Shown here one piece after another: positions 19,133 to 34,518 of a stretch of DNA of 34,578 nucleotides (positions are counted from its first letter, which is position 1; every line of letters starts with the position of its first letter). Both the position numbers and the translations under genes were made by a program. The notes under the pieces were generated by a model, which was not told the origin of the DNA, made no database searches, and saw only the letters and a program-made list of their open reading frames with translations. Source of the DNA: a virus (lineage: Duplodnaviria; Caudoviricetes); IMG/VR virus record IMGVR_UViG_3300034777_000230, positions 1-34,578 of that record; one strand, written 5' to 3'.

Positions 19133-19495
19133 ATGGGCGTTGTAATTGACTACACATCTGGCTTCTTTGAGGCTGCACCTACGGGTGAAACTGTTGGCAG
19201 TATTACTGGCAATGCAACGCTGGATCTAACATCTGGTAATGTGTTTAGTCATGCGCCTAGTGCGAACGCCACCTTTGTATTTAGCAATCCACCTGCAAGT
19301 GGCACTGGGTATGACTTCACGCTTAAAGTCACGCCATCTGCCACGGTGACAATCACATGGCCCTCCTCAGTTAAATGGGCTGGCGGCACAGCACCTACAG
19401 CACCCGCTAATAATGAGACTGACGTATATTCTTTCTTCACCACAGATGGCGGTACTAGCTACTACGGCTTTCAAGCAGGAGATGCATTAGCATGA
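19133..19495 (+). CDS. fibre-associated beta-sandwich domain protein
   Basis: TLDLTSGNVF...ITWPSSVKWAGGTAPT...TDVYSFFTTDGG, typical of phage fibre terminal domains. Confidence 0.7.
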   Translation: MGVVIDYTSGFFEAAPTGETVGSITGNATLDLTSGNVFSHAPSANATFVFSNPPASGTGYDFTLKVTPSATVTITWPSSVKWAGGTAPTAPANNETDVYSFFTTDGGTSYYGFQAGDALA

Positions 19496-21432
19496 GTGTA
19501 GCTATAGATTATAGCTCCGGTGCGTTTGCGGCTAACAAGGCGCAGGGCGTTGGTACAATAGCTCAAGCACAGGCTGGCTATGACTTAGCTAATGCTTCTT
19601 ATGATAGTGTTAGCTTTAGCGTGGCGAGTCAGACGTTACTTCCATATGATTTGTTCATAGATAGTACCGGAAGTCATTTGTATGTGGTAAGCTCAAATGA
19701 TCAAAATGTCTATCAGTACAGCCTTTCGAGTACTTGGGATATTACTTCTGCAAGTTATGTTCGTACTTTAGATGTCTCAACAAATAGTTCTGGCCCCAGA
19801 GCTATCTTCTTTAAGCCCGATGGCAGTGAGATGTATTTAGGTGTTGGGGGTGATCAAGAGATACAAAAATACTCTCTTAGCTCAAATTGGGATATAAGCA
19901 GTGCAACCTATACAAATGCACTAGGCGTGTCTTCACAAGGAACTTCGCCATCGGGTTTATATATTGGTAATAGTGGAACTAAACTATACTTTTCTACACC
20001 AGACAACAATTTAATAGTTGAGTATACCTTATCTACGGCGTGGGATATTACAAGTGCAACTCATGTTCAATCATTAGATATTAATACACATGAAACCGCT
20101 GTTCAAGCAGTAGTATTTAAGCCTGATGGTACAAGTATGTACATTATTGGTAGTCAAAGAGATGCCATAAAAGAGTTTAGTTTAAGCACTGCGTGGGATC
20201 TTTCTACAGCATCTAAAGTGGGTGCATTTGCAGACGATTTTGTGATTGCTTCTCAAGAGACTTCACCTCAAGGTATTTTCTTTAAGTCTGATGGTACAAA
20301 ATTATATGTAGTTGGAACTGCGAATGACACCATCTACCAATACTCCACAGGATCGTATGTTCAAAACCTAGACATCTCCAGCGGCACCTACTTCAACTAC
20401 ACCCCATCAGCCAACACCACGTTTACTTTCAGCAATGCACCAGCATCTGGCACGGCGGCTGGCTTTGCTTTGGCGGTTACTGGGGCAAATGTAGGTGCGG
20501 GTTATGACATTGCTAATGCTTCGTATGATAACAAGAGCTTTGATATCAGCAGTCAAGAAACTCTAGCCAGTGCTTTATTTTTTAAGCCTGATGGTACAAA
20601 AATGTATATGACAGGTGGAAATGCTGACAGTGTATTTGAATACGACTTGTCCACTGCCTTTGACGTAAGTACCGCTGCATATAACAGTGCTTCATATTAT
20701 TATGGCGCACCTCCGGGAATTACTGAGGCACTGTTCTTTAGAGCCGATGGTCTAAAGTGGTATTCAATAGATCGTGGCGAAGATAGAGTTTATGAATATA
20801 ACATGTCAACTGCGTGGGATATTACGAGTTCTTCTTTAAACCAAAGTCTTGATGTCTCCAATAAAGAAGCAGCGGGTCGTGGTTTATTTTTTAACTCAGA
20901 TGGAACTAAGATGTATATTTGTGGCACTGGTTTATCTACTGCTAATCAATACAATTTAAGTACTGCTTGGGATATATCAACAGCTTCTCATAGCTCTACT
21001 TTTAGTGTTAGTTCGCAAGATGTATTTCCACAGGGAATATCTATAAAATCCGATGGCACAAAGATGTATATTGTTGGGAGTAATACTGACACTGTGTATC
21101 AGTACAGTTTAAGTACTGCTTACGATCTTTCTACAGCATCCTACGACAGTGTAAGTTTTAGCGTACAAAGTCAAGATTCACTCCCCTTTGGATTTTATTT
21201 AAAACCTGACGGTACAAAAATGTATATAGCAGGTAGATCTAATGATACTATCTTTCAATACACCACACAATCCACAGCAACATCCACATTCACATATCCC
21301 TCATCAGTGAAGTTCCCTAGCGGCACAGCCCCTGCTGGCCCAGCTATAGGTGAAACAGATGTGTTGGTCTTTTACACAGACGATGGTGGAACTACCTATC
21401 AAGGCTTTAGAGCAGGGGATGCAATGGCATGA
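19492..21432 (+). CDS. paralogue of 19133-19495 carrying two inserted 5-repeat beta-propeller-like domains
   Basis: Ten ~50-aa repeats (STAWDISTAS...FFKPDGTKMY...QY) in two blocks. The three flanking segments align to the upstream 120-aa protein. Confidence 0.8.
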   Translation: MSVAIDYSSGAFAANKAQGVGTIAQAQAGYDLANASYDSVSFSVASQTLLPYDLFIDSTGSHLYVVSSNDQNVYQYSLSSTWDITSASYVRTLDVSTNSSGPRAIFFKPDGSEMYLGVGGDQEIQKYSLSSNWDISSATYTNALGVSSQGTSPSGLYIGNSGTKLYFSTPDNNLIVEYTLSTAWDITSATHVQSLDINTHETAVQAVVFKPDGTSMYIIGSQRDAIKEFSLSTAWDLSTASKVGAFADDFVIASQETSPQGIFFKSDGTKLYVVGTANDTIYQYSTGSYVQNLDISSGTYFNYTPSANTTFTFSNAPASGTAAGFALAVTGANVGAGYDIANASYDNKSFDISSQETLASALFFKPDGTKMYMTGGNADSVFEYDLSTAFDVSTAAYNSASYYYGAPPGITEALFFRADGLKWYSIDRGEDRVYEYNMSTAWDITSSSLNQSLDVSNKEAAGRGLFFNSDGTKMYICGTGLSTANQYNLSTAWDISTASHSSTFSVSSQDVFPQGISIKSDGTKMYIVGSNTDTVYQYSLSTAYDLSTASYDSVSFSVQSQDSLPFGFYLKPDGTKMYIAGRSNDTIFQYTTQSTATSTFTYPSSVKFPSGTAPAGPAIGETDVLVFYTDDGGTTYQGFRAGDAMA

Positions 21433-25952: not shown

Positions 25953-26009
25953 GTCGGGGCTGGCTCATAGGAAACTGTGACAGGGTTGTGATGAACTTGC
26001 TGGCCCCAC
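25953..26009 (+). ncRNA. candidate structured RNA (three-way junction) downstream of the endolysin
   Basis: Outer stem GGGGCUGGC/GCUGGCCCC and inner hairpin UCAUAG-GAAA-CUGUGA. G-U pairs are satisfied only on the plus strand. Confidence 0.35.
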
Positions 26010-26010
26010 G

Positions 26011-26039
26011 AAAAAACCCCACCTAATCAAGGCGGGGCT
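26011..26039 (-). terminator. intrinsic terminator (twin of 33761-33789)
   Basis: Minus strand AGCCCCGCCTTGATTAGGTGGGGTTTTTT. Confidence 0.85.
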
Positions 26040-26084
26040 TCTCTCATATCTAGCTGAACATAGGAGACCAAGCCATACGCTCAA
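26011..26084 (-). ncRNA. candidate sRNA A
   Basis: TTGACA(26117-26112)-16-TAATAT(26095-26090) upstream and a terminator downstream. No SD-led ORF. Contains the anti-SD UCUCCU. Confidence 0.45.
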
Positions 26085-26118
26085 AGTCGATATTAGTTAT
26101 ATTTTTATCTATGTCAAC

Positions 26119-26158
26119 AAAAACCCCGCCACTACACAAGGAGAAAATAGTGACGGGG
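26119..26158 (-). terminator. intrinsic terminator of the leftward early operon
   Basis: Minus strand CCCCGTCACTA-13 nt loop-TAGTGGCGGGG-TTTTT, 20 nt after the stop at 26179. Confidence 0.8.
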
Positions 26159-26178
26159 GAGAAGGTTTCACCCTTCAT

Positions 26179-26487
26179 CTACGCCGCGTGGGAGGACGCG
26201 GCATCTTGTTCCGCAATACGCATTCGTCTGTATCGATTAACAATATTACGGGTACAGCCTAATTCTGCCACAATATTGTCTACGGTCATACCCTTTTCTA
26301 ATCGTTCATAAATTTTAACTTTGTAGCCATTCGGTCTGCCCTTATGACCACCCATTTTTTGCTTTTGCATAAATTGCCTAGATTTGCCAAAATTTGGATT
26401 GTCACCAAATGACCCACTAGATTTGACGTATTTCATATCGGCTTCTGCCATTTCTTTCATTTTTGCGGCTAACACGGCTTCATCCAT
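26179..26487 (-). CDS. hypothetical protein with C-terminal HTH
   Basis: GMTVDNIVAELGCTRNIVNRYR; SD GAAGGG. Confidence 0.7.
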   Translation of the reverse strand: MDEAVLAAKMKEMAEADMKYVKSSGSFGDNPNFGKSRQFMQKQKMGGHKGRPNGYKVKIYERLEKGMTVDNIVAELGCTRNIVNRYRRMRIAEQDAASSHAA

Positions 26488-26668
26488 GAATGTTTTTCCC
26501 TTCTTTTTGTAGTGATAAGATAAATGATTTTAATTCTGATCTGGCGCGTTCCAAATCTTGCTTCACGTTAGGGTGCGGATCTAGCCTAAAGCTTTCATCT
26601 TGCAAACGATCTACTTGCCCCCTGAGAAATCGCAAATGTGCGTGATCGGCTGATGTAAGGCTCTGCAT
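26480..26668 (-). CDS. hypothetical protein
   Basis: SD-like AAAGGGGGG before ATG; coupled to the next gene. Confidence 0.65.
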   Translation of the reverse strand: MQSLTSADHAHLRFLRGQVDRLQDESFRLDPHPNVKQDLERARSELKSFILSLQKEGKNIHG

Positions 26669-26855
26669 TTATATACCCCCCTTTCTGGCTGCGTTTGAAA
26701 TTGATCTGCCAATAGTGGCAAAATCTAACAAGGCTCTTAGCATCCCATTCCAGAATATCTGAAGCCTCTGCATAAGTGTAATCATCGGCAAGTGATTTGA
26801 CCAAAGCAATCTTTTCTTGCTGGTGGCGGTTGCGGATTTCTGCCCAAGTTTCCAA
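26595..26855 (-). CDS. hypothetical HTH-like protein
   Basis: Probable TTG start at 26855 after AGGAG; YTYAEASDILEWDAKSLVRFC. Confidence 0.55.
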   Translation of the reverse strand: METWAEIRNRHQQEKIALVKSLADDYTYAEASDILEWDAKSLVRFCHYWQINFKRSQKGGYINAEPYISRSRTFAISQGASRSFAR

Positions 26856-26856
26856 T

Positions 26857-27048
26857 TTACTGCTCCTGTTCTGGCCGTGGCCGTGGTTTGATGTTTGGAA
26901 TAGGGCGGCGGTAATCTGCTTCACCGCCCATCTCTACGCACTGAGGAAGAAAGATCCGCTCAAGATCATAATACTCAGAAAACGCCTTGCATTCATCTGG
27001 TGATGAGAAAATGACAAAGGCCATAAAAACTGGTTCAGCAATATTCAT
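26857..27048 (-). CDS. hypothetical protein
   Basis: TAATG-coupled start; C-terminal IKPRPRP. Confidence 0.6.
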   Translation of the reverse strand: MNIAEPVFMAFVIFSSPDECKAFSEYYDLERIFLPQCVEMGGEADYRRPIPNIKPRPRPEQEQ

Positions 27049-27140
27049 TACATCCACCCCATGCTAACGCCAAAGATCCAGCCTAACACCACCGCAGCAA
27101 TCGCCACGGTGATGATGATGTCTTGCACCCAATTAGTCAT
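27048..27140 (-). CDS. 30-aa single-TM protein (not in the ORF track)
   Basis: GGAG upstream. Translates as MTNWVQDIIITVAIAAVVLGWIFGVSMGWM and fills the gap exactly. Confidence 0.55.
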   Translation of the reverse strand: MTNWVQDIIITVAIAAVVLGWIFGVSMGWM

Positions 27141-27399
27141 TGATAACTCCATAGCTACGACATAGCTGGTTGCGCGTTGGAACGTGTTTGATGCTTTTAA
27201 CGATCTCTACGATCTCATCATATGTGCCATACAGGTAGGCAGATTTGAGCCGTGCGTTATGCATACTAACGTCATAATCGGTTGGGCCTGTGTTGCAGTC
27301 ACAAGCCTCTGTGATGGTTACACTGTCATCAAACCAGTTGTGTTGATGTGAATAGCTGATCATGCCGGTATCGCGGCATTCTTTGCAATTATAGCTCAT
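27133..27399 (-). CDS. hypothetical Zn-finger-like protein
   Basis: CKECRDTG...CDC; ATGA-coupled start at 27399. Confidence 0.65.
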   Translation of the reverse strand: MSYNCKECRDTGMISYSHQHNWFDDSVTITEACDCNTGPTDYDVSMHNARLKSAYLYGTYDEIVEIVKSIKHVPTRNQLCRSYGVIND

Positions 27400-27533
27400 T
27401 GGAATACTCCGACAAAAAAGAGGCCAATGAACAGCATGCCAAAGATACAAAGAGCGCCTATGACATCCCCAAGGATGCCAAGGCTGTTTTCCATATCGCG
27501 CATCAGAGCGCGTAGTTTATCAAGATGGGTCAT
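27396..27533 (-). CDS. 45-aa membrane protein (not in the ORF track)
   Basis: ATGA overlaps at both ends. Translates as MTHLDKLRALMRDMENSLGILGDVIGALCIFGMLFIGLFFVGVFQ. Confidence 0.6.
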   Translation of the reverse strand: MTHLDKLRALMRDMENSLGILGDVIGALCIFGMLFIGLFFVGVFQ

Positions 27534-27928
27534 TGTTTTGGCTCCCCTACTCTTGCAACAACAATCGTGTTCCCATCTTGGTCTTTCGCAAATCGATCTG
27601 GATCATCAAGGCCGTAGGTTTCTCCTTCCATAGCCTTAACCATGTCCGAGCCTTCGCTGATCCACTCATCCAGCGTCATGTGATTTAGCTGATGTACGTT
27701 GACGCTATGTTGCGCCCAATCAGCGCCCTCTGGACGATCCTCACCATCCAAGTGCGGGTGCGTGTCATAGGTAAACAGAAAATAATTACCCGCATCTGTT
27801 AAAACCTTTTCGAGGCTTAAATGCTTGCATCCAATTGCCTTGAGAATTTGAGCGCGAGTGATGCGCTCTGGTTTTTGCACTCTGATGCTGAAAATGTCGG
27901 GATCAAAATTGTAAACTGTATCGCTCAT
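27530..27928 (-). CDS. hypothetical protein
   Basis: GGAG SD and ATGA overlap at 27928. Confidence 0.7.
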   Translation of the reverse strand: MSDTVYNFDPDIFSIRVQKPERITRAQILKAIGCKHLSLEKVLTDAGNYFLFTYDTHPHLDGEDRPEGADWAQHSVNVHQLNHMTLDEWISEGSDMVKAMEGETYGLDDPDRFAKDQDGNTIVVARVGEPKQ

Positions 27929-28122
27929 GCGGTTTCTCCATCTATCCAAGACTTGCATTCTGCCTCAGTCGCAAATGACGCAACCATCAAAGGAACGGTG
28001 CCAAGACTCCATTCCTCAAATTTATTAGGATCTATGATCTGCCAGATTACACCAGCAGCATCATAACTCTTGTGCAAAAAGTTCCCATGCAGGGCTTCAA
28101 GTTTATAACCTTTATAATTCAT
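27925..28122 (-). CDS. hypothetical protein, first gene of a leftward operon
   Basis: Strong SD GAGGAG. Confidence 0.7.
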   Translation of the reverse strand: MNYKGYKLEALHGNFLHKSYDAAGVIWQIIDPNKFEEWSLGTVPLMVASFATEAECKSWIDGETA

Positions 28123-28148
28123 ATCAATCTCCTCATTTGATAATAGAT

Positions 28149-28177
28149 AGCCTAATCTATAAATTTGATAATTGCAA
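28149..28177 (-). promoter_or_regulatory. candidate leftward sigma70 promoter
   Basis: Minus strand TTGCAA-17-TAGGCT in an AT-rich divergent gap. Confidence 0.55.
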
Positions 28178-28195
28178 TAGCTAATCTAGGCTACT

Positions 28196-28223
28196 TTGAC
28201 ATAATATAAATAATTGATATGGT
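28196..28223 (+). promoter_or_regulatory. candidate rightward promoter for rusA
   Basis: TTGACA-16-TATGGT with an extended TG. Confidence 0.55.
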
Positions 28224-28229
28224 CACGCC

Positions 28230-28670
28230 ATGTATAAGGTAGAAATAGAAGTGTCAGGACAGCCGCAGGGCAAGGCCAGACCACGCTTCACCAAGTTTGG
28301 CAGGGCATATACCCCAGCGAAAACGAAGCTTTATGAGCAGCGCATACAAGCAGCGGCATGGTCTGTTATGAAGCAATATGACCTAGAGCCAACTGACAGG
28401 CCCGTTCATGTAGACATCATAGCCTTTATGGATATTCCTAAAAGCTGGTCAAAGACCAAGAGACTAGAAGCGGAATACAATGCCCTTCGACATACTACCA
28501 AACCGGATTTAGATAATATTTGTAAAGCGGCGCTTGATGGCATTTCTTGCGCTGCTGGTGGGGGGCCAGTTATTTTAGATGACAAACAGGTTCACAGCAT
28601 CAAAGCCAGAAAAGTGTATTGTCATCCTGATAGAGGGCCAGTTCTCTATATTTCGGTTGCATGGGAATAG
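28230..28670 (+). CDS. rusA: RusA family Holliday junction resolvase
   Basis: GKARPRF...YTP, KPDLDNICKAALDG and DDKQV motifs. Confidence 0.9.
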   Translation: MYKVEIEVSGQPQGKARPRFTKFGRAYTPAKTKLYEQRIQAAAWSVMKQYDLEPTDRPVHVDIIAFMDIPKSWSKTKRLEAEYNALRHTTKPDLDNICKAALDGISCAAGGGPVILDDKQVHSIKARKVYCHPDRGPVLYISVAWE

Positions 28671-28972
28671 CTGTAATCTGGCCCATACGTTTCACGCCAC
28701 AGCTTCGGCTCACGATGGAGCGCGATTTTGGATGTGTCAAAAAGACCCTGATGATGCCCTTCACATAACGGGATACAGCTTAGATCTGAACGCTTGCTAG
28801 TTCCAAACCTATCGTGGATTGGATGATGGGCTTGCGTGGGGCTGCGCTGCACTTCACCAAACGCCTCACAGATGCAGCAATTTTGCTGGCGTATCCATGC
28901 AAGGAACTTGATGCTTTTCTTATCCTTAGGAGCCTTGAGGCCCAGCGGCGGCTTATTTGCTAAGTTGGTCAT
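28646..28972 (-). CDS. putative HNH-like Zn-binding nuclease (DUF968/Ref-like)
   Basis: FLAWIRQQNCCIC...AHH...CIPLCEGHH. Confidence 0.65.
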   Translation of the reverse strand: MTNLANKPPLGLKAPKDKKSIKFLAWIRQQNCCICEAFGEVQRSPTQAHHPIHDRFGTSKRSDLSCIPLCEGHHQGLFDTSKIALHREPKLWRETYGPDYSYSHATEI

Positions 28973-29378
28973 ATGTTGGATCGTATCCTATTGCTTCTGA
29001 TAGCTTGCTCATAGCGGCCTCAAAGAAATCCATAAATTCTTTCTGATCCATCTTATCAAATGCAATGCTATCTGGAACATAATAAATCTGGCCCGTTACG
29101 CCGTTTATAATGCTCTTGTAATAGCCGCAAAGCATTTTCAAATCGTTGTGCAAGTGATCCTTTGTTGCCCACTTCCCTGTGGCCTTTACAACGCCTGTGA
29201 GCGTAGCCCAATAGAAAGCGTGATGCGGATTGGAGCGATTGGCAACTGGCTTCAAATCGAATAGCTGCCCTTCGCTGTAATCTTCCATCATATACGCAAC
29301 GTGCTTACTGACAGGTTCTAAAGCTCCGCTGCGCATAGTGACTTGCAAATGTGGATGATCAGAACGGGATTTCATCAT
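28953..29378 (-). CDS. NinB/DUF1367-like recombination-associated protein
   Basis: RSNPHHAFYW...SIAFDKMDQKEFMDFF. Confidence 0.6.
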   Translation of the reverse strand: MMKSRSDHPHLQVTMRSGALEPVSKHVAYMMEDYSEGQLFDLKPVANRSNPHHAFYWATLTGVVKATGKWATKDHLHNDLKMLCGYYKSIINGVTGQIYYVPDSIAFDKMDQKEFMDFFEAAMSKLSEAIGYDPTYDQLSK

Positions 29379-29718
29379 CTACATCGCTTTGAAGTGCATC
29401 GTGTTCTTGATGCTGCACTTCTTCTCTTGCCTTACCGCCAAGCAACGTCACAGCAGAAGCGCGAATATCCAGATAAGGCTTGTCGTTATAGATCCGCATG
29501 GAAAACTCACCAGAGACAGAAATCTTGATGCCCTTCTTTACATAGCTCACGATGGCTTGCGCTGCCTTGCCCCAATAGGCGCAGTCAAAATATAGGACGC
29601 TTTTATTTGCTCCATATCCATCTTGAACAGCAACAGAGAACTTTAATACGGGTGTGCCTTTATGCTCACGCAATTCTGCATCTCTGGTCACGTTACCAGC
29701 AATTACAATATTCTTCAT
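29359..29718 (-). CDS. ssb: single-stranded DNA-binding protein
   Basis: IAGNVTRDAELR OB-fold start; C-terminal DDEIPF. Confidence 0.93.
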   Translation of the reverse strand: MKNIVIAGNVTRDAELREHKGTPVLKFSVAVQDGYGANKSVLYFDCAYWGKAAQAIVSYVKKGIKISVSGEFSMRIYNDKPYLDIRASAVTLLGGKAREEVQHQEHDALQSDVDDEIPF

Positions 29719-30293
29719 TTCATTAACTCCAATTTGCGGTTGTTGTGAGCATAGAACAGCGTATCATACTGCTCGCTTGTCAGACCGACATGCTCTATTA
29801 ATTTTTTAAATCTGGCCTCATTGGCCGCGAACTTCTCAGCATCACAATTCTTGTAAAACTCAATGGCTGCATCAATTCTGGCGTTCAAATCAAGCTCCAT
29901 CGATGGGCCTTTTTTATTTGCCACGGCTGCATTGCCATCATCATCTTCTGGCGCAATCCCTGCTAATCCCAGCAAACCATAACGCCTTGCGTATGTAATC
30001 GCAGAGCCAAGACCCTGCATATCGTTTTTGCCCAGCACCAAATAAACCTTGCTGTCAAATGTATCACCAGATGAATGCAGAAGCTTTGTTTCTACAAAAT
30101 GGCCTTCGGCGTCCTTATCGTTGCGCTGTAGTACAGCAAACCCATTAGCATGGAATGCACCCATCGTGGCGTTTACCACTGCTTCAAGGTCAGCATATTT
30201 GCTTTTGAAGTGCGGGTTTTTACTGTTCTTTACGGCTGATCCCATTTCACTCTGTGCTTTTAGCAATGCTTTGATTGCTTCAATCATTTTCAC
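29715..30293 (-). CDS. erf: ERF family single-strand annealing protein
   Basis: NPHFKSKYADL and QGLGSAITYARRYGL...EDDDGN. Start is GTG 30293 or ATG 30287. Confidence 0.92.
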   Translation of the reverse strand: MKMIEAIKALLKAQSEMGSAVKNSKNPHFKSKYADLEAVVNATMGAFHANGFAVLQRNDKDAEGHFVETKLLHSSGDTFDSKVYLVLGKNDMQGLGSAITYARRYGLLGLAGIAPEDDDGNAAVANKKGPSMELDLNARIDAAIEFYKNCDAEKFAANEARFKKLIEHVGLTSEQYDTLFYAHNNRKLELMK

Positions 30294-30456
30294 TCTCCCT
30301 TTTGTGTTCCTGATGTGCTGCTTTTATTCCCACATCAACGGCATCCATCATTGAGAGAACAGCATAGCTTTCAATATTCCTCTCAGTTGCTATGGCAACC
30401 ATTGCTTTAAATACATGTCCTTTTATGGACAGTGGAGTAGGGTGTTTGTGTAGCAT
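30280..30456 (-). CDS. 58-aa hypothetical protein (not in the ORF track)
   Basis: SD GAGGAG. Translates as MLHKHPTPLSIKGHVFKAMVAIATERNIESYAVLSMMDAVDVGIKAAHQEHKRESEND. Confidence 0.65.
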   Translation of the reverse strand: MLHKHPTPLSIKGHVFKAMVAIATERNIESYAVLSMMDAVDVGIKAAHQEHKRESEND

Positions 30457-30545
30457 GTAATCTCCTCTTTAGTGAATTACTCTTTACATGATCTTATTTG
30501 TCGCGTAAAGACTGATTATCAATTTTGTCACTAAGGTTATGAATA

Positions 30546-30743
30546 ATGGAAAATCGCAATATATTATCACTTAACAGAATGCGTGAGATGTTAGCGGATC
30601 GCAACATTTCATCAGTGTCTAGGAACACTGGCATCAATCGGGTCACGCTGTCGCAAATAATGAACGGCACAACTGATCCTAAATACTCCACTATGGAGCG
30701 GCTATCTAACTATTTGGAGGAAAAACATGGACAGCCAGAATAA
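30546..30743 (+). CDS. Cro/XRE-family HTH regulator
   Basis: ISSVSRNTGINRVTLSQIMNGTTDPKYSTMERL; first gene of the rightward unit. Confidence 0.85.
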   Translation: MENRNILSLNRMREMLADRNISSVSRNTGINRVTLSQIMNGTTDPKYSTMERLSNYLEEKHGQPE

Positions 30744-30939
30744 TCAACTATTGCAGTATCTGCGTGACCACAGACGCATCCAGCCAATGACAGCTTTGCG
30801 CCAGCTTGGGATATACCGGCTGGCCGCAAGGATCAAAGATTTGCGCGATGAAGGCCATGAAATCATCACTGATCGTGTCGGTGAAAAGCGGATAGCGGAA
30901 TATACGTTGATCAAAGAAAAAACCCCCAGCGTGAACTGA
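30727..30939 (+). CDS. winged-helix DNA-binding protein
   Basis: IQPMTALRQLGIYRLAARIKDLRDEGHEIIT; SD GGAGG. Confidence 0.8.
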   Translation: MDSQNNQLLQYLRDHRRIQPMTALRQLGIYRLAARIKDLRDEGHEIITDRVGEKRIAEYTLIKEKTPSVN

Positions 30940-30942
30940 GGG
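30917..30942 (-). terminator. antisense intrinsic terminator (OOP-like position)
   Basis: Minus strand CCCTCAG-TTCACG-CTGGGGG-TTTTTT, overlapping the 3' end of 30727-30939. Confidence 0.65.
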
Positions 30943-31034
30943 CTTTAGTAGAAAAAGGTATTGCGTTATACTGATTGGGCTAAAAGTAACGCGGGGTCAT
31001 AGTAGCTGACCTCGCCCTTAATGGAAAGGGAAAA

Positions 31035-31688
31035 ATGAGCGTAGAAGCGTTGCACTGGGCATTATCTCAGAGAAAACTTAAACCGTCAGCTTGGATTGTA
31101 CTTATTAAGCTGGCTGATCGTCATAATCCAGATTTCGGATGCTTCCCAAGCACACAGAGGATCGCAGAGGATTGTAACATGTCTCGCATGTCGGTCACTA
31201 GGCATCTGAACGAACTGGAACTGATGGGCCTAATACGGCGTGAGAACAGGGAAAAAGAAACGGGTGAAAAGACATCAAACATGTATCATCTTAGCTTCAA
31301 AACCGATGTAACAAATTGTGACATAGGTAGTAACAAATTGATGCAACCCCATGTAACAAATTGTGGCAGTAATCTAGTAAGTAATAATCTTGTAAGTATA
31401 AAAGATAATATACCTCAATTTGATGAATTTTGGGAAGCTTACCCAAAGAAGATGGCAAAGGGGCAGGCAAGGAAGGCTTGGGCTAAGGCTATCAAGGCAG
31501 ACACACCGCAGAAGATCATAGATGCTGCTGTAGCCTATGCAATTTCGCAGCAAGGCAAAGACAAGCAATTCATCCCATACCCAGCCTCATGGCTTAATGC
31601 TGAGAGATGGAGAGATGAACCGGAGCCGCAAAAGGATGAGATGTTGAACGTGGCTGCTATGTTTCTGAAGGGAGAGATCAATGGATAG
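31035..31688 (+). CDS. replication initiator (N-terminal HTH, lambda O position)
   Basis: CFPSTQRIAEDC HTH; C-terminal FDEFWEAYPKK and IPYPASWLNAERWRDE; internal iterons. Confidence 0.85.
   Translation: MSVEALHWALSQRKLKPSAWIVLIKLADRHNPDFGCFPSTQRIAEDCNMSRMSVTRHLNELELMGLIRRENREKETGEKTSNMYHLSFKTDVTNCDIGSNKLMQPHVTNCGSNLVSNNLVSIKDNIPQFDEFWEAYPKKMAKGQARKAWAKAIKADTPQKIIDAAVAYAISQQGKDKQFIPYPASWLNAERWRDEPEPQKDEMLNVAAMFLKGEING
31306..31398 (+). repeat. iterons / putative replication origin
   Basis: GTAACAAATTG at 31308, 31330 and 31353 (22-23 nt period), then TAATCT(A/T)GTAAGTA twice in AT-rich sequence. Confidence 0.75.
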
Positions 31689-32148
31689 GAATGGATTTCT
31701 GAAGGAAAGGCTTTCTAACTTTCTACAGCGTTTAAACCCACCCAGAGCCATGCAGAGCAACGCAGAGGCGCAAAAAGAAGAAATAACGGATCTTTATAAC
31801 CGTCTGGCAAAGCTCGCTCCTAGTAAGGGCTATAACGATTGGTGGAGGGATTTCACTGAGCATCTTCTAAGCAATGCTATCGCAAGGACATGGCCCACGA
31901 TTAAGGAAATGAATGAGGCGGCAAGGGCCATAGCTCCAAAGCGTCCAGAGTTTCGTGATCTTACCAATGAGCCAGCATGGTCACCAGACCCCTATAAGAT
32001 TAACGCACAGCGCATTAAGAACATGCAGCCCGTCGGAGAGGAGTGGATAAGCGGAAAGCAATCAGAGCAGCTAATCAGCAGGGGCTTGATTGAGGAAACT
32101 GATCTTGATCCTTATCGCACTTACTTAGCTCATAGCACACATTATTGA
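31681..32148 (+). CDS. hypothetical protein at the helicase-loader (lambda P) position
   Basis: Coupled to the initiator gene; RTWPTIKEM motif. Function is inferred from synteny only. Confidence 0.6.
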   Translation: MDRNGFLKERLSNFLQRLNPPRAMQSNAEAQKEEITDLYNRLAKLAPSKGYNDWWRDFTEHLLSNAIARTWPTIKEMNEAARAIAPKRPEFRDLTNEPAWSPDPYKINAQRIKNMQPVGEEWISGKQSEQLISRGLIEETDLDPYRTYLAHSTHY

Positions 32149-32213
32149 AAAAGTCGTTTGACAGTTTATATGAAATCTGCTCATCTGGCATTCCATTGAA
32201 AAAGGAGATTGCG

Positions 32214-33230
32214 ATGTCAATCATTAAACAAATCAGCCTGAGCAAGGTTGATCCAAACCCGTACCGGATGCTTGGAGATTATCCATATAGCGAGGAAAAG
32301 CTGTCTGTGTTGGTTCGCAGCATCAAAGATGTTGGCCTGTGGGAGGGCGTTATTGGGCGTGAGAAGGGTGATCGTGTAGAGATTGCATTTGGTCATCACA
32401 GAATAGAGGCGGCTAAACGTGCTGGCTTATCTGACGTTAATGTTGTTATTCGTGACTTATCTGATGACGATATGCTGCGCTTTATGGGTCGTGAGAACGG
32501 TGAAGATTACCGCACAGACTTTCTTGTGTTGCTTGAAACTTGGGAGGCGGCTGACTTGCAACTGCAGTCGCGCGACTGCAAATCATCAAAAGCTATTGAT
32601 ATTGCAGAGTTTTTGGGATGGACGCAGGACAGGCCCAGTGGCGGCGTTCAATTTAATCGTGCTTCGGACGCTTGCAACAGTGCTTACAACCTTATTAAAG
32701 GCAAATATCTTGAGCGGTCTGATCTTGAAAGCCTGACAGTGAATGAGGCCAGAGAGATTTGCACTAGAGCGCAAGCCAATATGAAGCGCCTCGATGCGAT
32801 GGGTAAGCAAGGAAATCGCAAGGCGTCTGAGATTGAAAAGTCAAAGAAGCAAGTAGCAAAGGCTGTTAAGGCAACCGCAAAGCAATCCAGAGAGGGCCAA
32901 GTAGCTCAAAGGGATCTTCGCAGCACATTGGATGTAAATACTTACCGATTGGCAAAAGAGGCTAAGGTTAAGGAGCCTTTATTTGCGCAGTTTGGCAATC
33001 AATTGGCTGATCGTATTTCTGCAATGCTCAATGAGGATGTCAACGCTGGAAAGCTGGAAAATATCATTGATGCGTTGGATATTATTGAGAATGAGCAAGA
33101 CCATGCTGTTGTCACATCTATCAAGGCTAACCTCAAAGGCTTGTCAGAGCGCTCTATGCGCTGGCGCAGCAAAATGAGCAAGGAAAAGGTGGTAGAATTA
33201 AAAGCAATAGAGGGAGGCGCTGATGTCTAA
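32214..33230 (+). CDS. ParB/Srx N-terminal domain protein
   Basis: VDPNPYR, SIKDVGL and IAFGHHRIEAA. ATG 32214 follows AAGGAG, with TTGACA at 32158. Confidence 0.8.
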   Translation: MSIIKQISLSKVDPNPYRMLGDYPYSEEKLSVLVRSIKDVGLWEGVIGREKGDRVEIAFGHHRIEAAKRAGLSDVNVVIRDLSDDDMLRFMGRENGEDYRTDFLVLLETWEAADLQLQSRDCKSSKAIDIAEFLGWTQDRPSGGVQFNRASDACNSAYNLIKGKYLERSDLESLTVNEAREICTRAQANMKRLDAMGKQGNRKASEIEKSKKQVAKAVKATAKQSREGQVAQRDLRSTLDVNTYRLAKEAKVKEPLFAQFGNQLADRISAMLNEDVNAGKLENIIDALDIIENEQDHAVVTSIKANLKGLSERSMRWRSKMSKEKVVELKAIEGGADV

Positions 33231-33702
33231 GCATTTACGAAGAGAAGCGGCACGAGCTTGCCCAATACATCAAACTGTTATGGAAACAGCAGCAGACCAG
33301 CTTTGCTTACATGGGGTTTTTGAGAAAGATGCAATACTTGATCAGCTTAACCTAAAGGCAATGTCTGATGCTATCCGTTGGGATTACATAAGGGATTTCT
33401 TGCAACAGGAACAGGGATGTGAGCTTGTTCCATTAGCAAGTGTTTATTTTAAAAGACATCAAAGGCACGATGAGATAGCAAACCCATCAAGGTATATTGC
33501 TGGCGGTCATGGCAAAAAAACTGCTGGATATGCAGCTATAACATCAAGAAATGATCATCTTGTAGTGGCAAAGATAAAGATCAAACACGCCATCAGTAAC
33601 GGGGTTGGCGAAGCATTTAGGAATTATTTACAAGCGGCTGAAGATAAGCGGGTTGGAAGTGGCCTAACGCCTTTGCAAATAAGTGTAGATAAAGCCTCAT
33701 AG
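33223..33702 (+). CDS. hypothetical protein
   Basis: SD GGAGG; overlaps the stop of the ParB-domain gene. Confidence 0.75.
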   Translation: MSKHLRREAARACPIHQTVMETAADQLCLHGVFEKDAILDQLNLKAMSDAIRWDYIRDFLQQEQGCELVPLASVYFKRHQRHDEIANPSRYIAGGHGKKTAGYAAITSRNDHLVVAKIKIKHAISNGVGEAFRNYLQAAEDKRVGSGLTPLQISVDKAS

Positions 33703-33719
33703 CAATGCTAACATGTGAT

Positions 33720-33789
33720 CATTCATATAGACCCTTTCTTTTGAATTGATCTGCTCAACTAGCCCCGCCTTGATTGGTGGGGTTTTTTT
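33720..33789 (+). ncRNA. candidate sRNA B
   Basis: TAGATA(33686)-17-TAACAT(33709) with an extended TG; ends in the twin terminator. The 5' part is complementary to an RBS-ATG-like sequence. Confidence 0.4.
33761..33789 (+). terminator. intrinsic terminator (twin of 26011-26039)
   Basis: AGCCCCGCCTTGATTGGTGGGGTTTTTTT. Confidence 0.88.
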
Positions 33790-33804
33790 CATTAGGATAG
33801 GCAC

Positions 33805-34518
33805 ATGCCAGTAAGTTTGAACTTTCAATCTAATACAAAGCAAATTGAGGCCCGCATGGCTAACCTTGCGCTCAAGCAGATCCCATTTGCAACGGCCAAG
33901 GCACTGACGCTCACAGCAAAAGAATTGGTTAATAAGAACGAAAGAGACACAGCGCAAATCTTTAACAGCCCAACTAATTGGACTGTAAAAGCATTCAGGT
34001 TCATCCCAGCTAAAAAGGATAACCCCAGAACATTCATCTTGCGCAAGGACAGGCCCGCGACAACAAACGTGCCACGCAGCAAGCAAAACTATCTGGAGGA
34101 TTTGCAAACAGGCGGTGGGCGTAAGCCTAAAGCCTTTGAGGGCGCACTGAGTGCAAAGGCGAAAGGTGCAAACAAATTCCGATATGCCACACCCACAAGA
34201 AGCAGCAGACTTAACAAAGCCGGTAACATCAGCCGCAATGCCATCGATAAGATATTAGCGGAGACAGGGGTATCAGGCTCAAAGCTATTCATACCCAGAT
34301 CAGACAGTGGCCTAGCACTCAAAGGCGGTGACGGTGTATTCCAACGAATGGCAAGGGGCAAGGTTAAGAAGCTTCTGCACCTAACCAATGCTACACCAAA
34401 CTATAGAAAGACATTTAACTTCTATGGACGTATGCAAAAATACGGAAGATCAAAGTTCCCCAAGATATTCCAGCGTGAGTTCAGGGCCGCCATCCTTAGC
34501 AGCAAGCGGGTAAGATGA
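33805..34518 (+). CDS. tail completion-like protein (gpZ / neck-type), displaced from the tail cluster
   Basis: Basic protein with N-terminal KQIPFATAKALTLTA and C-terminal PNYRKTFNFY...FQREFRAAI. No equivalent gene lies between 8620 and 9377. Confidence 0.65.
   Translation: MPVSLNFQSNTKQIEARMANLALKQIPFATAKALTLTAKELVNKNERDTAQIFNSPTNWTVKAFRFIPAKKDNPRTFILRKDRPATTNVPRSKQNYLEDLQTGGGRKPKAFEGALSAKAKGANKFRYATPTRSSRLNKAGNISRNAIDKILAETGVSGSKLFIPRSDSGLALKGGDGVFQRMARGKVKKLLHLTNATPNYRKTFNFYGRMQKYGRSKFPKIFQREFRAAILSSKRVR

Follow-up and report, generated by a model that had tools for sequence, protein, structure and literature searches.

One predicted terminator, likely reused at two unrelated short-RNA genes of a roseobacter-type siphophage, and an optional cassette whose RNA may act as a decoy

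Why would a phage carry two almost identical terminator hairpins, in inverted orientation, at the two ends of its early region? The question is raised by IMG/VR record IMGVR_UViG_3300034777_000230, a whole virus record of 34,578 bases that was analyzed over its full length (the window) and whose PHROG matches, from 53 open reading frames (ORFs) scanned, indicate a small siphophage. One hairpin lies at 26011-26039 on the minus strand (the left copy) and the other at 33761-33789 on the plus strand (the right copy); they flank the early genes, which comprise leftward ORFs, RusA, HNH, NinB, SSB, Erf, two helix-turn-helix proteins, a replication initiator and a ParB-like protein. The likely answer is that short-homology recombination placed one predicted intrinsic terminator behind two short-RNA genes that are unrelated to each other. 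On the left, the hairpin closes an optional cassette whose predicted RNA may work as a decoy, and we give this combined account a little less than an even chance.

The inverted match described in an earlier note on this DNA is borne out. The reverse complement of 26011-26039 is identical to 33761-33788 at 28 of 29 positions, with an extra A in the left copy. The twin local alignment score is 26, compared to a maximum of 14 and a mean of 11.1 in 60 Markov-shuffled windows, which indicates that the match reflects shared descent rather than chance. Each copy folds as a hairpin followed by a U-tract (about -17 kcal/mol, z about -4), and among the seven terminators detected in the window the twin pair scores 19 while the next-best pair scores 6.5. 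As the note had anticipated, both copies close short, promoter-bearing candidate RNAs: each is predicted to terminate its own promoter-driven transcript of about 70 nt. The additional upstream motif that the copies were said to share held up only in part, as the two 11-mers match at 9 of 11 positions and are out of register, the left one lying about 10 nt away from its hairpin and the right one running into its hairpin.

The twin is not a general feature of related phages. Besides the window and CRP-811 we examined 16 relatives or neighbors, which makes 18 whole or near-whole records, and compared all terminators detected in a record with one another; long-loop terminators escaped the detector. 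A near-identical pair was found only in the window (score 19, at most 12 elsewhere), and relatives carry other terminators at both the left and the right site. The hairpin-type pattern of the window gave one match each in 4 of 35 records, two of which are partial and could conceal a second copy, while the commonest cassette terminator was single-copy in all nine records that have it (35 examined; three of the nine are at least 92% complete). In one relative, G009, a different terminator family is reused at both boundaries, its members being less alike than the window twin. The exact right hairpin also occurs in a separate, unrelated phage lineage (L001 and L002). It is not a generic high-copy host terminator, since the exact hairpin was present in 0 of 151 Rhodobacteraceae genomes; a relaxed pattern was single-copy in 11 of 101 such genomes, and a near-variant terminates a host gene in L238 that we take to be cytochrome c1.

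Of the earlier interpretation, the short candidate RNAs are supported, as is the requirement that the hairpin not be a high-copy host terminator, and CUAG does recur among right-boundary RNAs, most of which are related; the three roles proposed for the twin are not supported. For a common 3' scaffold with a variable 5' seed we found the reverse, in that at least three unrelated terminator types are exchanged while the 5' loop is constant: of 39 cassette records, 10 have the window type of terminator, 27 a CAGAGA type and 2 others, so that 29 of 39 differ from the window. The note itself named a loop that is not conserved in relatives as grounds for refutation, and this is what we saw, with 8 of the 10 records of this terminator type carrying another loop. 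A shared antitermination target is at odds with a twin present in 1 of 18 records, and inversion of the 7.8-kb early module with the finding that 12 of 12 informative relatives have it in the same orientation. No strand-changing joint was listed in the contigs of four runs, although two joints are not shown and contigs drop rare variants, so that a rare inversion could have escaped.

That the twin itself is functional, whether as scaffold, antitermination target or Erf inversion pair, seems to us very unlikely, and as a general feature it is largely refuted. It could draw on the reuse of same-family terminators at both boundaries of G009, on the invariance of the right element in four runs, and on the calculation that a plus-strand transcript reading through the left copy could form a duplex with the right hairpin (-51.5 kcal/mol, versus -28 kcal/mol for the two hairpins). 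It is opposed by the rarity of the pair, the uninverted relatives, the free swapping of terminators among cassettes, the complete absence of the left copy from over half of the loci and the failure of a model of the left cassette RNA to match the right-boundary RNA. One further observation in its favor concerns the sequence of the left copy. Eight of the ten records of this type read CCCTGATCAGG, not CCTTGATTAGG, whereas the window left copy has two C>T changes relative to its family, both toward the right copy (2 of 10 records of this type); this fits exchange between both copies in this lineage. The simplest reading of these data is a pool of interchangeable terminators swapped by short-homology recombination, for which the Erf-like single-stranded DNA annealing protein of the window (29715-30293, minus strand; PHROG match) would be a plausible agent. 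Incidental reuse, not a conserved system, is most likely what the twin itself represents.

What, then, does the left copy terminate? We predict that it closes an optional, uncatalogued small-RNA gene with two constant motifs. This accessory cassette of 108 bp (26011-26118, minus strand, as are all its parts) is made up of a promoter, a small RNA and a terminator; short, directly repeated terminator tails mark its two ends. The predicted sigma-70-type promoter, TTGACA-16-TAATAT (26090-26117), matches the consensus at 10 of 12 positions; other alleles have different TTG.../TAnnAT or CATnnT boxes at an equal distance from the loop. The predicted small RNA of about 73 nt (26011-26083; fold z -4.35), whose start is placed from the -10 box, would consist of a 5' hairpin, a GCUAG linker and the left twin as intrinsic terminator (26011-26039). 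The hairpin has a conserved top, GG-YUUGGUCD-CC (26063-26074, with UUGGUC at 26071-26066), and the conserved GCUAG motif (26050-26054) lies mostly 10-11 nt past the loop core. Rfam at gathering score gave no match in the window, in 7 of 9 loci (including all roseophage cassette loci) or in 124 kb of relatives, and our cassette model R1 found no host homolog in 151 Rhodobacteraceae genomes, its two weak matches being plain terminators. Rfam matches at E<=10 at the left site were set aside as terminator-level noise, and we rejected an alternative 5' pairing proposed by RNAalifold because it consists mostly of G-U pairs.

Phages acquire and lose the cassette precisely. The first sign of empty sites was that many endolysin relatives lack exactly this unit. 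A search with the flanks alone retrieved 49 viral loci, near-identical strains included, of which 20 were filled, 23 empty and 6 unrelated; the cassette is thus filled in 20 of 43 and precisely absent from 23 of 43 related viral loci. Contigs of two runs skip exactly 108 nt (26010 to 26119) with five shared letters, and because of these letters and of the bounding repeats of terminator tails, gain and loss by recombination at those repeats is likely. A metagenome scan that required TAGC yielded 22 loci (18 filled, 1 empty and 3 unrelated), the 18 filled ones being selected for the motif, unlike the flank-only viral loci. Viral and metagenome loci together gave 26 different cassette strings and 21 different units; the cassettes span 108-180 bp and encode RNA only. 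Horizontal exchange is suggested by the fact that each of the two main cassette types was found in either flank background. At the cassette site of L100 / G009:34050-34450 there are two successive promoter-RNA-terminator units, the second of which is pyrimidine-rich with GCUGCUAGA in its terminator loop.

Across these alleles the two motifs persist. UGGUY was present in 20 of 20 filled viral loci chosen by flank alone, usually as UUGGUC on a short GG/CC stem, and it is followed, mostly 10-11 nt later, by GCUA or GCUG. The occurrence of GCU(A/G) in all 21 units was required by the regular expression that defined a unit, which in four units caught GCTGC three letters before GCTAG. Several alleles consist of two tandem units, each keeping both motifs. 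In 11 single-unit alleles one closing pair of the loop is G-C in all 11 and the other is G-C in 9, A-U in 1 and G-U in 1, the one G-C to A-U change preserving the closing stem. In the clear units the core varies by C>U and A>G alone (a weak pattern, about 1 in 12 by simple count), and either change would allow a single fixed partner to pair by wobble. That the cassette is a promoter-terminator fragment that is neutral or only insulates, and whose RNA does nothing, is hard to credit, and we consider it highly improbable. Patchy presence and the lack of transcript evidence would suit such a fragment, but not the retention of two motifs at a constant spacing amid changing promoter, stem and terminator sequences, nor the stem-preserving change, nor the motifs kept in each tandem unit.

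The likeliest role for the cassette RNA is that of a decoy. In the mechanism we propose, a host-polymerase promoter would transcribe the RNA early in infection, and the RNA would display the UUGGUC loop and the GCUAG motif and so titrate a partner. The loop would start pairing with a GACCAA-bearing RNA, and tandem units would raise the titrating dose. The most plausible partner would be a C4/CI-type antisense immunity RNA from a resident prophage or satellite; the natural target hairpin of such an RNA has an identical loop. A pattern combining the loop and a U-tract matched 14 viral loci: eight roseophage cassettes, four chance-like matches, and the loci L078 and L085. By Rfam, L078 has IsrK and two C4 matches and L085 has one C4 match. 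At both loci the C4 bulge, GACCAA, has this hairpin as its target, while the large C4 loop pairs with the stretch that follows the hairpin. Since no C4 RNA and no regulated gene lie beside the cassette, a free target mimic is suggested.

A number of observations weigh against a C4-directed decoy. The likeness to L078 is partly circular, as the loop pattern itself found that locus, and the cassette lacks the first GCAAAAUC hairpin of the IsrK-type leaders. No C4 RNA was found in the window. The c4-a1b1 model (RF03163) matched 0 of 5 cassette-bearing records at E<=1; two C4-shaped patterns run over the viral collection gave 1 and 8 matches, none of them C4-like; and a C4-shaped pattern occurred in 2 of 401 Rhodobacteraceae genomes, below its control. 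That C4 switches exist in Rhodobacteraceae (2 of 151 genomes, 27 candidates scored per genome) speaks for such a decoy, but both RNAs have other specificities. Duplex energies did not set GACCAA-bearing C4 RNAs apart from others, and exact patterns found no cognate partner RNA in the viral collection or in Rhodobacteraceae genomes. Covariation in the long 5' stem is weak, as 42 of 500 shuffles reached its score. Of 12 right-boundary RNAs, 10 also carry CUAG (background 1.84 per kb; eight share one terminator family and one was chosen by that motif), and as these RNAs lack the loop, its recurrence fits protein binding as well as pairing. RNA runs X17 and X18 contain only small shares and empty-site strains and are thus silent on expression of the cassette. 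Because the searches for a cognate RNA failed and the c4-a1b1 model does not match, the cassette RNA would at best work like a C4 target and is not a member of that family; it likewise has no match to RF01394, RF01695 or RF03163.

Other candidates for a partner or a model were rejected. A viral match in L223 was dismissed as a cognate C4 because it lies within coding sequence. RNAs resembling sRNA-Xcc1 gave three weak matches in 151 Rhodobacteraceae genomes (27 candidates scored per genome), without GACCAA/CUAGC, and mimicry of a tRNA 3' end or of 16S fits a minority of alleles. The two complete C4 switches of Rhodobacteraceae lie in L221:1390-1630 and L222:600-860, and in each the second target covers the ribosome-binding site of the gene that follows; in L221 this gene is presumably Bro-N-like.

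Two other functions were weighed against the decoy directed at an immunity RNA. One possibility is that the cassette encodes an ordinary trans-acting, probably Hfq-dependent small RNA that blocks translation of a host mRNA, its loop and 3' stem strand (UUGGUCACCUC or UUGGUCUCCU) pairing with a Shine-Dalgarno sequence and spacer. Small size, an A/U-rich linker and a U-tail are typical of trans-acting Hfq-dependent RNAs, and the cassette RNA fits this description; the window allele is, in addition, complementary to an AGGAG-spacer-AUG pattern. However, other alleles do not retain pairing that spans the start codon, the phage start sites of 22 records showed no conserved target, and a bipartite CUAGC...UGACCAA site was not recurrent in 10 small host-family genomes (20 matches versus 48 for the control). 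As it also leaves the second motif and the tandem units unexplained, we think this function unlikely.

Another possibility, the main rival and in our view equally unlikely, is that the cassette RNA is a protein decoy resembling pseudo-ToxI, whose GCUAG tail would bind an RNA-binding defense nuclease of the host and whose dose would increase with tandem units. The toxI layout is promoter, tandem units and terminator (PMC3475682, in excerpt), and the cassette has the same order without toxN. The CUA tail of ToxI can spare neither C27 nor U28 (same excerpt), and all 21 units keep GCU(A/G), which the unit definition required. The units weakly resemble the ToxI repeat of pECA1039 (locus L240), aligning with it at shuffle p values from <0.001 to 0.065. 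When all sequence windows of a locus are ranked by this likeness, the cassette comes second or ties for first in 5 of 8 loci; it falls outside the top six in the window itself, in L017 and in L145. A second pseudoknot stem can form in 10 of 21 units, no A-rich cut site of the ToxN type follows the tail, and Rfam ToxI (RF02519) does not match the cassette. On the host side, ToxN (PF13958) was found in 0 of 401 Rhodobacteraceae genomes, in a search that had no positive control and did not cover CptN, and TenpN in 1 of 201, with 52-nt repeats unlike the cassette. Because CUAG recurs in the right-boundary RNAs, a CUAG-reading protein is possible. A Rhodobacteraceae genome carries a tenpIN locus at L242:1290-1938 with two 52-nt antitoxin repeats. 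In a Lelliottia plasmid, the toxIN repeats at L241:760-1160 match phiTE pseudo-ToxI at 100% over 59 nt, and because of this match phiTE pseudo-ToxI may be a captured genuine antitoxin of another ToxN.

The right copy belongs to a different RNA. A predicted promoter, TAGATA-17-TAACAT (33686-33714, plus strand, as is all that follows here; motif match), would give a right-boundary RNA of about 69 nt (33721-33789) that consists of a small hairpin, a linker and the terminator and ends the replication operon. Among strains (four runs, three studies), TAATAT and TACGAT are the only variants of the -10 box, contigs that span 33717-33824 list no substitution there, and the element is retained where the upstream gene is replaced. 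Relatives have the same order of promoter, small hairpin, linker and terminator after their replication operons. G010 and G011 share the 12-nt linker ATCTGCTCAACT (33749-33760) letter for letter but follow it with another terminator, and the right half of the shared upstream motif therefore belongs to a separate RNA family.

The loop of the right terminator may have a second job. Its letters TTGATT (33770-33775) also fit a -35 box, and together with TAGGAT they form a predicted late promoter, TTGATT-17-TAGGAT (33770-33798), whose +7 position is the ATG at 33805 of the first late gene (33805-34518, minor tail protein-like; match to PHROG 1924). We infer that a leaderless late transcript uses the right loop as its -35 box, and this second use would account for the constancy of the loop; the right hairpin would close a separate short RNA while its loop is likely kept for the late promoter. 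The RusA gene has a matching geometry, TTGACA-16-TATGGT with +7 at the ATG at 28230, and the arrangements at 28196-28230 and 33770-33805 thus predict leaderless transcripts for RusA and the first late gene. A second uncatalogued motif family was noticed at early/late boundaries, namely large-loop terminators with a conserved GGCUAGG...ACUG loop, which had no Rfam match (G001:21817, G002:24446, G009:34162 and 24494, G010:25009, G011:22601, G012:11351, G013:18424, G015:27884, and L030).

The insertion site of the cassette lies between two structured flanks. Downstream is the convergent 3' end of the endolysin gene, where a three-way-junction RNA element after the endolysin stop (25953-26009, plus strand; fold z -3.28) forms the fixed right flank; read by eye, its varying stems stay paired across phages with different lysin genes. 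The junction has a conserved UGUGAUG loop (the window, L088, L089, L113 and others) and is shrunk to a bare stalk in L020, L028 and L029. Its shape, a stalk with two hairpins, recalls C4 and sRNA-Xcc1, without the bulge and with no Rfam match. On the other side, the 3' end of the leftward early operon (26119-26202, minus strand) forms three hairpins, the last being the operon's own terminator. Their UCCUCCC and UUCUCCUU loops are kept across the group, and two loops are anti-Shine-Dalgarno-like; this may be an anti-Shine-Dalgarno small RNA of the 3' untranslated region (weak ar14 match, E=8).

The remainder of the record is that of a phage whose host is probably a roseobacter, since its capsid shares 79.7% identity with the capsid of Roseobacter phage CRP-811 (PMC12629253, in excerpt) and relatives of its HNH protein are mostly within Rhodobacteraceae genomes. 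The plus strand from 45 to 25946 encodes methylase, terminase, portal, capsid, tail, holin and amidase (PHROG matches). Neither an integrase nor a Q-like antiterminator was identified among the ORFs scanned, the first late protein had no relatives among viral contigs, and an annotated phage collection held no real DNA match for the left or right site. A ParB-N protein and a 159-amino acid orphan at 32214-33702 form an optional block that was not found in the 17 other records mapped and is swapped for other sequence in some strains. A 646-amino acid tail-associated protein (19492-21432) contains internal repeats of about 51 amino acids, the largest direct-repeat families of the window.

These results make the twin itself a minor matter, one that shows these phages shuffling terminators as interchangeable parts, with one twin loop likely fixed by its second job as a promoter box. 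The larger subject is the cassette, a predicted accessory gene that encodes only an RNA and is not yet catalogued. Because strains with and without it occur naturally, its alleles have one unit or two and its two short motifs are constant, it offers a directly testable handle on RNA-level conflict among marine phages, prophages and hosts. It could be speculated that it is an exchangeable, dose-tunable counter-defense gene of marine roseobacter-type siphophages, which, by mimicking a C4/CI target or else a type III antitoxin as a free-standing RNA, would titrate away an immunity RNA or a defense nuclease of the infected cell, and which is swapped, like a moron, at terminator tails; we regard this as possible but doubtful. 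If the partner were a C4-type RNA, a phage would be deploying a free target mimic against the RNA immunity of another element, of which we found no description in the open-licence literature searched.

Both copies resemble known phage arrangements in part. The lambda pR'-6S-tR' unit consists of a promoter, a short RNA and a terminator before the late operon. The right copy likewise closes a predicted promoter and short RNA directly ahead of the late operon, but here the terminator is overlapped or followed by another predicted promoter. For this unit, the small RNA of a Stx phage is the subject of PMC7547250 (in excerpt).

The cassette, in turn, is like the morons and terminator-bounded module boundaries of lambdoid phages in being an optional unit with its own promoter and terminator between conserved flanks. 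Lambdoid morons are gained and lost in this way, each with its own promoter and terminator. In contrast to them, the cassette encodes RNA only, and its exchanges occur at terminator tails. With the pseudo-ToxI of phage phiTE and with ToxI antitoxin arrays it shares phage-borne short RNA units of varying number (PMC3475682, in excerpt) and, in one allele class, a similar first stem and CAGCUAGA tail. On the other hand, it has one or two diverged units between promoter and terminator rather than near-identical repeats, and a pseudoknot is possible in about half of its units.

The closest likeness is to the IsrK (RF01394), P4 SeqA and c4-a1b1 leaders, IsrK being described as a structural homolog of P4 SeqA, itself a target of CI RNA (PMC4825925, in excerpt). 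The hairpin top GG-UUUGGUCA-CC in L078 is identical to that of the cassette, as is the top in L085, and both RNAs are arranged as a hairpin, a short single-stranded motif and a terminator in about 75 nt with a promoter of their own. Unlike the leaders, the cassette has neither a C4 RNA nor a second target downstream, and no antirepressor gene; it is stand-alone, optional and sometimes tandem.

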